Assembly (NCBI GenBank): GCA_050185705.1
Contig: JBFWZD010000014.1
Location: 32,147 to 96,146 of the forward strand
Length of the DNA stretch: 64,000 nucleotides
From: Nitrospira sp.
Lineage (GTDB): Bacteria > Nitrospirota > Nitrospiria > Nitrospirales > Nitrospiraceae
Direction of reading: 5' to 3'
Both the position numbers and the translations under genes were made by a program. This document shows positions 34,424 to 36,959 of the stretch, piece after piece (the first letter of the stretch is position 1; each line of letters begins with the position of its first letter). The notes below the pieces were generated by a model. The model saw only the letters and a program-made list of their open reading frames with translations. It did no database searches and was not told the DNA's origin.

Positions 34424-36391
34424 CTAGAACCTGAGCTCAACTGAAAACTGAAGGATACGGCCGATATCCTGGCGTTCCTTATCCTGAACCACCAACCGCC
34501 ACCTCCCAGTTGGCCTCTTCCCCGTCAAGGCTATCAACGATGGGGTGTTGACGCCGTCGTAGGTCGTCCGGAGATTGTCTCCGCCTTCCCCTTGCCTCTC
34601 ATGCAGCACGATGGGCTTAACCTTTGCAGAGGATGGAGGAAGAAGCTTCACAATAAGATCGCCTATATATGTGTGTTCAATATCGACGCGAACAGCCACC
34701 GACGATATTGGATTGGTTTCTCCGATCATGACCGAGATGGTTGAGGTCTTGAGATCCCGAATGGGCACGACACGAGAGGCCGTATGGATGACAGTCGGCG
34801 TCGTGACAGTCGGCGCAGCCAACTCGACGGCTCGCATCGCATTGACCCGACCATACCCGTAAAACGGACTATGGCCGTTGGCCTGATACTTCCCGCCCGA
34901 GGCATCGATCCGGTCACAGGAACGTTTCAGAATATCCCGAACTTCATCCCATCGTAGAGACGGATTCCGTGAGAGCATCAACGCGACCACGCCGGCCACG
35001 CCAGGGCAAGCGCTCGAGGTGCCTCCAAAATCGTTGACATAGTTTCCCGCGGCATCGCCTCGGGTGACCTGTCCAGGATTGTACCCGGCCGTACCTGACC
35101 GGTCCGTCGTCCAAATCCCTGGGAGAGGGAGCACGGTATCGTTGCTCGGAAAGGCGCACCACACCGCATCACCGAAATCGCTGTAGGCGCTCTTCTTATT
35201 GCCAGCATGACAAGCCGCGACTGCAATCACTTTTTCGTAGCTCGCATATCCGTCGTTGTCCACGCTCTCGTTCCCGTTGCCTGCGGCAAACGTGATGACG
35301 CACCCTTTCCCGTTCCGCCCATTGGCAACGGCCCAATCGATGGCGGTACGAGTCGAGTCCGGCAGCGGCACAACTTGCTGATGCGCGGGGTCGTTTGGGT
35401 CCCACCAGTCACCATCTTGCGGCCCCCAACTGCAGGAAATAACATCGGCTCCATGTGACGCCGCCCAGACAAATGCATCGGCTTCCGCCTGTGATCCAAG
35501 AGCCGAGGCATACCGAATGGGCATCAGTTGTGCTCTTGGCGCCACCCCCGATGCACCATGGAGACCACTGGCACAGGCGACACCCGAGCAGGCTGTCCCA
35601 TGGTTGTCGCGGCTTCCTGGTCGAGGATCGTCGGTCTTGCGAGTCACATCTCGTGGCGCCACTATTTTCTCCGAACCGACCCATTCTTCATGTTCCAGAT
35701 CACACCCGTCGTCGATCACCGCAATCCGAATCCCCTCGCCCTGGCTCAAGGCCCATGCCGCCTCAACATTGGCGTGAGCATTGTATTCTTTGCCACCGAT
35801 CGTCGTTTTTCCGAGGTGCCACTGTTGCTGAAACACCTGCCGCCATCCCATCTTTCTGACCAACTCAGGGTGACAGAGATCGACGTCTGGATGCCGCAGC
35901 AATCGGTCGGTGATCTCGAAGACAGTTCGCCCTGTTCCCTCCTCGGCTTGGACGAAGAAGGCGTTGCGCGCATATTTGATCGGCTGCTTGATGGTCAGTC
36001 GATGGGAATTGAGCACCTTTCGACAGGCCGACTCAGCTACATCGGCACCGAACTTCACGAAGACGTTTTCCGTATAGAGCACCGGTCGCTTCGACCGTGG
36101 GTCGACAAGGACCCGACCGGCAAATTGCACATCACGTTGCTGCGTGAGTGTCTTTCGTGCAACCCCTCGAGCGCCAGCGGTTCGATGCGCGCTGCCATAC
36201 CGAAACACCTCAACACCCGCATGGTGAAAGCGTGCCACCTGTTCCAAGTCAGCCAACACTTCTCTCCCCTTCATCGACTCTAGGGAAGAATCGAGCGAAC
36301 GCCGACTCCGCGTCCGAACCACCACATACTCCTCGGCCACCTGTAGTGAATACTGCCGCCCTTCACGCCCACCGTAACGATACGTCACCAT
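34424..36391 (-). CDS. S8 subtilisin-like serine protease with long pro-domain and C-terminal proprotein-convertase P domain; no signal peptide
   Basis: Catalytic triad IAVIDDG / HGTACSG / GTSSACP; oxyanion AAGNG; P domain VDIEHTYIGDL...GRWRLVVQD. Confidence 0.92.
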   Translation of the reverse strand: MVTYRYGGREGRQYSLQVAEEYVVVRTRSRRSLDSSLESMKGREVLADLEQVARFHHAGVEVFRYGSAHRTAGARGVARKTLTQQRDVQFAGRVLVDPRSKRPVLYTENVFVKFGADVAESACRKVLNSHRLTIKQPIKYARNAFFVQAEEGTGRTVFEITDRLLRHPDVDLCHPELVRKMGWRQVFQQQWHLGKTTIGGKEYNAHANVEAAWALSQGEGIRIAVIDDGCDLEHEEWVGSEKIVAPRDVTRKTDDPRPGSRDNHGTACSGVACASGLHGASGVAPRAQLMPIRYASALGSQAEADAFVWAASHGADVISCSWGPQDGDWWDPNDPAHQQVVPLPDSTRTAIDWAVANGRNGKGCVITFAAGNGNESVDNDGYASYEKVIAVAACHAGNKKSAYSDFGDAVWCAFPSNDTVLPLPGIWTTDRSGTAGYNPGQVTRGDAAGNYVNDFGGTSSACPGVAGVVALMLSRNPSLRWDEVRDILKRSCDRIDASGGKYQANGHSPFYGYGRVNAMRAVELAAPTVTTPTVIHTASRVVPIRDLKTSTISVMIGETNPISSVAVRVDIEHTYIGDLIVKLLPPSSAKVKPIVLHERQGEGGDNLRTTYDGVNTPSLIALTGKRPTGRWRLVVQDKERQDIGRILQFSVELRF

Positions 36392-36455
36392 GTCCAGTCC
36401 TCCTTGTTGAACCGGGTATATGGAAAACGAACTCTGCGATCTCTACAATGAAACG

Positions 36456-36959
36456 ATGACGCTTCCCGTTTCACTGACCGAATTTCCTGCTGTCCTCTCA
36501 CTCACTCACGATGGATTGGCTCGCCGTTACCTCAAACACCCAGAACTCATTGCTGTCCACAATGTTGACCTCTCGACTGAGACAACAGGCGTCGAGCTGA
36601 TCCTCGACGACTCTATCGCCATCTGTCGAAAAATACCTCCCTCGCTGGCTAACCACCCCAGTCCGCTCACAATCACGCCGGTGTATCAGGCAGCACCTCA
36701 CGGCCCGCTCGCTGTCCCAACCGGTCGCATCTTCGTCCGCTGTTCACCGGACCTTCGTCTTGAAGATCGGCGCACTGATCTGGCCGCACGGGGCTACGAG
36801 CTCACCGAAATCCCCAGCTATGCACCCCACACAGGATGGGTCCAGTCTGCCACCGGCGATATGGCTTCCAGCCTCAAGAACTTTGAGCGGTTGAAGACCC
36901 TACCCGGCATTGTTCATGTCCAGCCTCAACTGCTGATGCCTAGGACGGCTCGCTCATAA
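36456..36959 (+). CDS. Stand-alone protein homologous to the pro-domain of the adjacent S8 protease
   Basis: Ungapped 94-residue hand alignment with the S8 pro-region (18 identities). Start taken at ATG 36456 (TACAAT 6 nt upstream); 36420 is the alternative. Confidence 0.65.
   Translation: MTLPVSLTEFPAVLSLTHDGLARRYLKHPELIAVHNVDLSTETTGVELILDDSIAICRKIPPSLANHPSPLTITPVYQAAPHGPLAVPTGRIFVRCSPDLRLEDRRTDLAARGYELTEIPSYAPHTGWVQSATGDMASSLKNFERLKTLPGIVHVQPQLLMPRTARS

Follow-up and report, generated by a model that had tools for sequence, protein, structure and literature searches.

Small proteins that resemble subtilase pro-domains, and that serve as inhibitors or chaperones of a protease encoded beside them, are known from a short list of systems. 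In Aeromonas sobria, orf2 lies downstream of asp, and its product is both a chaperone and a temporary inhibitor (IC50 84 nM) of the protease ASP, itself devoid of a pro-peptide; the C-terminal Lys of ORF2 sits at the catalytic centre of ASP (PMC5638518). Stand-alone I9-type inhibitors include yeast PBI2, Pleurotus POIA1, Arabidopsis SPI-1, Toxoplasma MIC5 and Plasmodium SUB1-ProM, the latter being encoded beside a protease that still carries its own pro-domain (PMC6993865). Here, we analyse a divergent gene pair found in a 64,000-nucleotide stretch of Nitrospira sp. DNA (contig JBFWZD010000014.1; hereafter the window), consisting of a kexin/furin-like subtilase and a small protein that we judge, from published peptides and family alignments, to be orthologous to Alr1381 (PrcA) and All1380 of Anabaena sp. 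PCC 7120. PrcA has been studied since around 1990, and the Anabaena enzyme (the only one so characterised) is calcium-dependent and of trypsin-like specificity; to our knowledge, neither a physiological function nor a regulator has been established for it in about 30 years. The pair is probably a two-gene module, in which a PrcA-type Arg/Lys-directed protease is accompanied by a trans-acting pro-domain-like inhibitor or chaperone.

Results

The Protease Is Classified as an S8 Enzyme with a P-Domain

The two open reading frames (ORFs) and their domains are located in the window as follows (aa, amino acid residues; pLDDT, predicted local distance difference test; AF2, AlphaFold2):

34424..36391, minus strand: PrcA-type kexin/furin-like subtilase, 655 aa plus stop codon
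36104..36391, minus strand: N-terminal domain of the protease, aa 1–96, mixed alpha/beta, AF2 pLDDT about 90
35840..36094, minus strand: cis pro-domain, protease residues 100–185, from the AF2 model, hhalign and the basic residue at the junction
34850..35740, minus strand: S8 catalytic domain, aa 218–514, with D227/H264/S459, oxyanion N372, S1 acid D326 and D380 of the DGY motif
34436..34705, minus strand: P-domain (proprotein convertase), aa 563–652, PF01483, 3.6e-13
36420..36959, plus strand: small ORF, 179 aa from the first start, 167 aa from Met13 (36456)
36456..36959, plus strand: All1380-family small protein, 167 aa when started at Met13 (ORF opening at 36420), from homologues and Anabaena peptides
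36492..36689, plus strand: N-terminal all-beta domain of the small protein, aa 25–90 (179-aa numbering), from AF2
36699..36953, plus strand: C-terminal pro-domain copy, aa 94–178, from hhalign, Foldseek and the basic tail

The positions of the two ORFs, and the spacing of 28–64 bp between their starts, agree with those given in an earlier reading of the DNA (hereafter the sequence-only reading), which had also credited the protease with an intact D/H/S triad and no signal peptide. Both of these claims hold. Pfam recognises Peptidase_S8 (1.3e-40) in addition to P_proprotein, the triad follows the subtilisin order, and all 63 homologues share D227, H264, S459 and N372, as well as D326 (SWGPxD), which aligns with the Asp of SWGPAD in Kex2, and D380, which we take, by its motif, to have the S1 role of furin D306. 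By triad and P-domain, the protease is thus classified as an intact S8 enzyme of subfamily S8B (kexin/furin-like), and it should prefer Arg or Lys at P1, as predicted from its acidic S1 residues. Its nearest PDB sequences are Kex2 (1e-26), furin (5e-25), mirolase (7e-24) and ASP (2e-22), with the furin alignment spanning residues 187–650. With Foldseek, its AlphaFold model (pLDDT 81) retrieves furin together with Kex2, at values around 1e-32 to 1e-30, as well as ASP, and matches unautoprocessed pro-subtilisin E (3whi) with a TMt of 0.72. As for the signal peptide, conservation of the N-terminus (MxxxRYGG...) begins at residue 1, and the model shows this end as a beta-strand with pLDDT ~90; it therefore does not correspond to one. 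Judging solely from the absence of signal peptides, none having been seen on the protease (on the basis of this conservation and model) or on the small protein, both products would be cytoplasmic.

The N-terminal 184 residues of the protease form two domains modelled with high confidence, followed by a low-confidence linker leading to QQWHL, the motif at which the alignments with Kex2 and furin start. The first domain (strands 2–6, 12–27, 49–55, 60–65 and 88–96; helices 33–47 and 72–83) is conserved throughout the family, while the second is the cis pro-domain, without Pfam recognition, in which strands (103–114, 133–137, 144–148, 170–179) and helices (120–129, 156–166) succeed each other in the order E-H-E-E-H-E. 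Within the catalytic domain, aa 414–457 (window 35021–35152; FPSN..GIWTTDRSG..GYNPG) are among the best-conserved stretches and yet have an AlphaFold pLDDT below 50; they may be a mobile loop, or one ordered by calcium or substrate, near the S1 region.

The protease family is large (>3,335 database proteins at E≤1e-30) and nearly constant in length (655–665 aa). Even in comparisons between Nitrospirota, NC10, Acidobacteriota and Nostocales, its members retain about 60% identity, and the mean column identity is 74% over the 63 homologues. The cluster names found in the databases are just “S8 family serine peptidase” or “hypothetical protein”. More distant S8 relatives (35–47% identity) are carried by plasmids of Pantoea (L090), Leisingera (L091) and B. 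thuringiensis (L092); their alignment to the protease starts at or before the cis pro-domain (query 55–104) and ends around residues 525–532, ahead of the P-domain, and no divergent small partner is annotated next to them. These relatives may point to the broader superfamily that gave rise to the PrcA module.

The Small Protein Ends in a Homologue of the Cis Pro-Domain

The small ORF is a real gene. It has 17 close homologues, and searching 1.84 billion cluster representatives with a profile delineates a family of 525 clusters at 50% identity (E≤1e-3; 445 at E≤1e-10), whose members, among the 150 matches listed, are nearly all free-standing proteins of about 160–175 aa. Searches with the protein itself against Pfam, NCBIfam and PADLOC yielded zero family matches, and a profile search of PDB sequences with the family returned nothing at E≤10. 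Its AlphaFold model (overall pLDDT 81.6; predicted template modelling score, pTM, 0.73) shows an N-terminal all-beta domain (strands 25–30, 33–47, 58–62, 66–69 and 84–90; pLDDT 81–89) followed by a C-terminal domain with a pro-domain fold. The 34 invariant columns of the family all fall within aa 87–172.

The similarity between this C-terminal domain and the cis pro-domain of the protease emerges with the depth of the alignments. A BLASTP comparison of the two single sequences is marginal (16/72 identities, E=0.042), and hhalign with shallow alignments gives a probability of 62.6%, while the comparison of 98 small-family sequences with 63 protease sequences reaches 95.3% (E=2.4e-8) over 86 ungapped columns (small 94–179, protease 100–185), and that of the two pro-domains alone 96.8% (E=2.6e-10). 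Five other domain pairings, used as negative controls, all score below 1%. In the window, the small protein thus carries in its C-terminal half, as judged from profile alignment, a homologue of the cis pro-domain of its neighbour. The sequence-only reading had described the small protein as a free-standing copy of the pro-domain, a description that stands for the C-terminal half and fails for the N-terminal beta domain, which has no detectable counterpart in the protease (hhalign <1% between the N-terminal domains of both proteins). For the same reason, we discounted a greedy co-linear extension of the 98-versus-63 alignment as evidence of homology. Nor was any internal duplication detectable by hhalign within either protein (<1%).

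Structural comparison bears out the shared fold. Among low-rmsd (root-mean-square deviation) Foldseek hits, the small protein matches ORF2 in the ASP–ORF2 complex (3wqb_B; probability 1.00, TMt 0.64, rmsd 3.1) and the PC1/3 prodomain bound to furin (9fid_D; probability 1.00, TMt 0.79), with 9fid_E and 9fid_F also matched at probability 1.00. At the sequence level, the Pfam model Fervidolysin_NPro-like (“Fervidolysin N-terminal prodomain”) weakly matches 9 of the 98 family members, whereas the Inhibitor_I9 and S8_pro-domain models do not match the small protein of the window at E≤1.

In the window, the small protein's C-terminal tail reads ...EPQ-LLMPRTA-R178, with a single Ser left before the stop codon, and R178-S179 align with R184-Q185 of the protease, 3–5 residues ahead of QQWHL, so that the small protein stops at the junction between pro-domain and catalytic domain, exactly as the sequence-only reading had proposed. 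Among 162 family members having both the V-E-P-Q motif of the final strand and at least eight residues after it, EPQ+8 is Arg or Lys in 154 (95%); the chain ends exactly there in 94 (58%) and one to four residues beyond in 58. In addition, Arg occupies P4 in 78 and P2 in 51 of the 162, yielding RxxR or xRR endings that look like furin/kexin substrates. On the protease side, 62/62 homologues have Arg or Lys eight positions after C-H-P-E, at the residue that aligns with the terminal Arg of the small protein. The human furin pro-peptide has the same spacing (..LEQQ-VAKRRTK-R|). Since its conserved basic tail matches the cis junction, the free protein resembles the already-cleaved pro-peptide of an Arg-specific convertase, and the tail is predicted to fit the non-prime subsites of the cognate protease.

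The Pair Corresponds to Alr1381 and All1380 of Anabaena

Alr1381 of Anabaena sp. PCC 7120 is annotated as PrcA, a “calcium-dependent protease” (PMC3610870). In an exoproteome study of this organism, Alr1381 and All1380, the latter labelled “no similarity”, were reported as contiguous and divergent genes whose products were both detected (PMC4390845). The counterparts of the window proteins are known entries: PRCA_NOSS1 (Q59149) for PrcA and Q8YX37 for its divergent neighbour. Five mass-spectrometry peptides of Alr1381 from that study agree with the protease family consensus at the corresponding positions, among them AHANVEAAWK (211–220), KTNFPTPGNR (258–267), IDPVGGNYNAEGR (502–514) and IPQGTWTLEVADK (633–645), while the All1380 peptides FTEGVDIESQQAAINQAGYEVAK (120–142) and NVENVEPQMLIER (175–187) map onto the small family. 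The protease members from Nostocales (662–664 aa) are about 60% identical to the protease of the window; for the partner, the identity between window and cyanobacterial sequences is about 30%.

Both Anabaena orthologues are thus made as proteins, and, because All1380 peptides were detected, the possibility raised by the sequence-only reading that the small ORF might not be expressed falls away. The gel data of the same study place PrcA (71.5 kDa precursor) in a band with proteins of 49–60 kDa and All1380 (21.2 kDa) in a band with proteins of ~18–27 kDa, and the PrcA peptides considered here all start at residue 211 or later (PMC4390845). Such a band and such peptides fit the loss of the N-terminal ~185–200 residues. 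In the literature searched, no functional link between All1380 and PrcA was found, the former being listed there merely as “no similarity”.

The Pair Is Widespread and Moves as a Unit

To delineate the distribution of the pair, one genome per species was scanned with a seed alignment of five small-protein sequences, which returned 80 loci from Nitrospirota, NC10, Planctomycetota, many Cyanobacteria, Acidobacteriota, Gemmatimonadales, Rhodothermales, Chromatiales and one deltaproteobacterium. The protease lies directly upstream on the opposite strand in 74 of them, which confirms the co-occurrence of the two genes beyond the window; of the six exceptions, two end without upstream DNA and four are apparent cyanobacterial orphans. 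Conversely, the small gene is present in 7/7 further contexts reached through the protease. The divergence of the two genes is correlated (pairwise identities, r=0.97; distant pairs, r=0.75; Mantel p=0.001), a value to which the species phylogeny contributes.

The surroundings of the pair change from one lineage to another. It is found between aclB and mutM in close relatives (L001–3), in three other Nitrospira contexts (L004/5, L093 and L094), and in still others outside this genus, i.e., in Nostoc (L006), Pyrinomonadaceae (L008) and NC10 (L009). Among 86 flanking ORFs at 21 diverse loci, neither a third conserved gene nor a defence island was found, each of the 109 Pfam families recovered occurring at most four times, and housekeeping genes make up most of the neighbours. 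The pair forms a self-contained module that relocates as a unit.

A few neighbours deserve mention on their own. In some Nitrospira-like contigs, though not generally, genes resembling those of extracellular contractile injection systems (eCIS) adjoin the pair: an eCIS_core (PF13699) protein stands beside it in a Nitrospira metagenome-assembled genome (CABVRZ010000003.1; L094:944–5332), where a 741-aa protein with a P_proprotein match and a faint Peptidase_M6 match is a second P-domain protein near PrcA, and DUF6519 occurs together with very large Pfam-less ORFs (749 and 976 aa in L004) at L004:4823–12615 and L005:4713–6671. Moreover, at several loci the pair, or a protease distantly related to PrcA, has peptidoglycan enzymes (Amidase_2+SH3, LysM-VanY, YkuD, MurNAc-L-Ala amidase) as neighbours (L004:1019–1915; L005:764–1462; L093:4165–5373 and 13018–13968; L090:1910–2671); these enzymes do not recur in the neighbour scan of the 21 loci.

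Control Region and Flanks in the Window

Between the two starts lies one further feature:

36392..36455, between both starts: shared divergent control region, from the sequence and a consensus scan

The start-to-start gap is 28 bp if the small gene begins at 36420 and 64 bp if it begins at Met13 (36456), the latter being favoured by the alignment, as homologues of the small protein begin there (form of ~167 aa). A strong Shine-Dalgarno sequence (AAGGAGGA; minus strand, 36398–36405) precedes the protease ATG by 6 nt, while none was found before either candidate start of the small gene. On the plus strand, TGGAAA-17-TACAAT (36421–36449) looks like a promoter, as a consensus pattern match that is not evidence of function; it ends 6 nt from the ATG at 36456, so that an mRNA would begin at about this ATG. 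Going by this pattern match only, the mRNA of the small gene may be leaderless, with translation from Met13 at its very start.

On either side, the aclB-like and mutM genes were assigned from the Pfam families annotated at L001, a near-identical locus; this supports the position between aclB and mutM indicated by the sequence-only reading. From the same annotation, window 26343–34142 resembles a Nitrospira-type reductive tricarboxylic acid cluster (IDH, aconitase, aclA, aclB), and the opposite flank (37011–38816) contains mutM, the gene of a DSPc phosphatase and a small zinc-finger-like ORF, all syntenic in L001. The composition profile around the pair bears no signature of foreign DNA, and DNA of the window is also present in landfill and wastewater metagenomes.

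Discussion

A pairing of protease and anti-protease, as put forward by the sequence-only reading, is the most economical interpretation of these results. Because the small protein contains a copy of the pro-domain that ends in an Arg the protease should recognise, it is most likely an inhibitor or chaperone. In such a scheme, the protease would be made as a zymogen, of which aa 1–184 (N-terminal domain and pro-domain) would help folding before being cleaved after R184. The C-terminal domain of the small protein, which has the fold and the sequence logic of a pro-domain, would then dock on the pro-domain face of the catalytic domain and lay its tail in the substrate groove, the terminal or near-terminal Arg entering the acidic S1 pocket in the manner of a cleaved pro-peptide. 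Docked in this way, the partner would keep the mature protease latent, and perhaps aid its folding, until removed or out-competed, its removal amounting to activation. More speculatively, the calcium dependence of PrcA might add a second lock, and the partner's N-terminal beta domain might provide extra contacts or a regulatory input.

Several observations weigh against this interpretation. Since the protease keeps its own cis pro-domain, a chaperone acting in trans seems redundant. In 68 of the 162 family members, including that of the window with its single Ser, the chain runs past the P1 Arg, which makes the tail look like a substrate rather than a product. The Foldseek E-values of the small domain are only about 1e-2, as is usual at 80 residues, and the small protein has an extra N-terminal domain that is conserved. 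Furthermore, both Anabaena proteins come from an exoproteome preparation, itself containing many cytoplasmic proteins. Finally, an intact small gene is found with no PrcA-type protease in the 4 kb upstream at L013, L045 and L076 (small gene at about 3863–4474) and in the about 1.5 kb upstream at L083 (1520–2119); at these loci, the protease may be elsewhere in the genome, or the small genes may be real orphans.

The first alternative is that the small protein is purely an external foldase, which would mature the protease as ORF2 does for ASP and then be destroyed, leaving no steady-state latency. It can draw on the structural match to ORF2 and on the ORF2 precedent itself, as well as on the general action of pro-domains as foldases. 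This role is weakened, however, because the protease has a conserved cis pro-domain where ASP has no pro-peptide, and because intact All1380 co-exists with processed PrcA, being detectable near full size (21 kDa) alongside it in the Anabaena gel data at hand. The folding of PrcA is also said to be assisted by its own pro-peptide, as Baier and colleagues reportedly concluded in 1996. We consider a pure foldase unlikely.

The sequence-only reading had put forward a toxin–antitoxin-like switch, or an anti-phage or abortive one, in which the loss of a labile small protein would free a toxic intracellular protease. A protease with a cognate inhibitor is workable in principle for this purpose, and the two-gene cassette does occur in at least four different contexts within Nitrospira, with a patchy distribution over many phyla at about 60% identity. 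On the other hand, PADLOC gives a generic subtilase match only (1.5e-14) and zero for the partner, the genes are divergent and not co-transcribed, and no defence or other family recurs among the 86 mostly housekeeping neighbours of the 21 loci. The conservation of the protease is likewise unusual for a defence gene (mean column identity, 74%), and the Anabaena prcA mutant that Maldener and colleagues are said to have obtained in 1991 reportedly had no obvious phenotype. A defence or toxin–antitoxin role, therefore, gains no support from these results and strikes us as highly improbable.

As a further alternative, the small protein might be no regulator at all. It could be a substrate, serve as cargo or adaptor, or descend from an inverted duplication of the 5′ end of the protease gene, as a remnant that has drifted in function and in which the N-terminal beta domain does the real work. 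This idea would account for the head-to-head geometry, the conserved and unexplained N-terminal domain and the few orphan copies, yet we give it very little credence. The family is conserved most strongly in the pro-domain copy and the basic tail (34 invariant columns in aa 87–172; P1 basic in 95%), a pattern that speaks for selection acting on active-site contact; moreover, linkage is tight and the genes co-diverge.

An inhibitor or chaperone acting in trans, which we retain as the probable function of the small protein, also allows a bolder reading, albeit one that we think has only a slim chance of being right. The All1380 family would be a sensor-latch, its pro-domain copy plugging a mature, cytoplasmic PrcA, while the N-terminal beta domain would receive a signal (proposed signals are calcium influx, envelope damage and infection) whose arrival would release the partner and free an Arg-specific convertase within the cell. 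If true, this would represent a widespread bacterial switch in which a zymogen is held in trans, and would at last provide PrcA with a physiological role. Short of this, the inhibitor or chaperone interpretation already offers a concrete candidate regulator for PrcA, which can be tested cheaply. If it is correct, a large bacterial family without signal peptides joins the stand-alone pro-peptide-like inhibitors of subtilases. Moreover, the All1380 family, which is without a Pfam model, provides material for a new family annotation.

Comparison with Known Systems

By analogy, ASP/ORF2 (3WQB) appears to be the closest bacterial precedent in terms of mechanism, as it likewise combines a kexin-like subtilase having a P-domain with an adjacent small pro-domain-like protein. 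The two systems differ in that PrcA keeps its pro-peptide, and in that the genes studied here are divergent and encode two proteins on which no signal peptide is seen, whereas ASP and ORF2 are exported. No homology to ORF2 was found at the sequence level, a single one of the 98 small-family members matching the Pfam model ORF_2_N, at E=0.17. In terms of logic, the closest precedent would be SUB1/SUB1-ProM, along with the I9-type inhibitors, since SUB1-ProM also is a trans pro-domain beside a protease with a cis pro-domain. PBI2, POIA1, SPI-1, TgMIC5 and SUB1-ProM are nevertheless all eukaryotic, and none has an extra N-terminal beta domain. The All1380 family is further set apart from the I9-type inhibitors by its profile homology to the cognate cis pro-domain and by a near-invariant basic residue at or near the stop codon, and is distinctive in being bacterial, devoid of a signal peptide and divergent from the protease. 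PopC/PopD of Myxococcus xanthus is similar in that a subtilase without signal peptide has a neighbouring cognate inhibitor; in that case, however, popD and popC share one operon and the same orientation, a P-domain is absent from PopC, and no resemblance to a pro-domain is known for PopD.

The pair cannot, in consequence, be called an undescribed system, for which the sequence-only reading had considered it the best candidate: the protease is assigned as an orthologue of PrcA, its partner as All1380, and this type of regulator is already known from ORF2, PBI2 and SUB1-ProM. What the All1380 family adds to them is a new bacterial family, and not a new kind of system.

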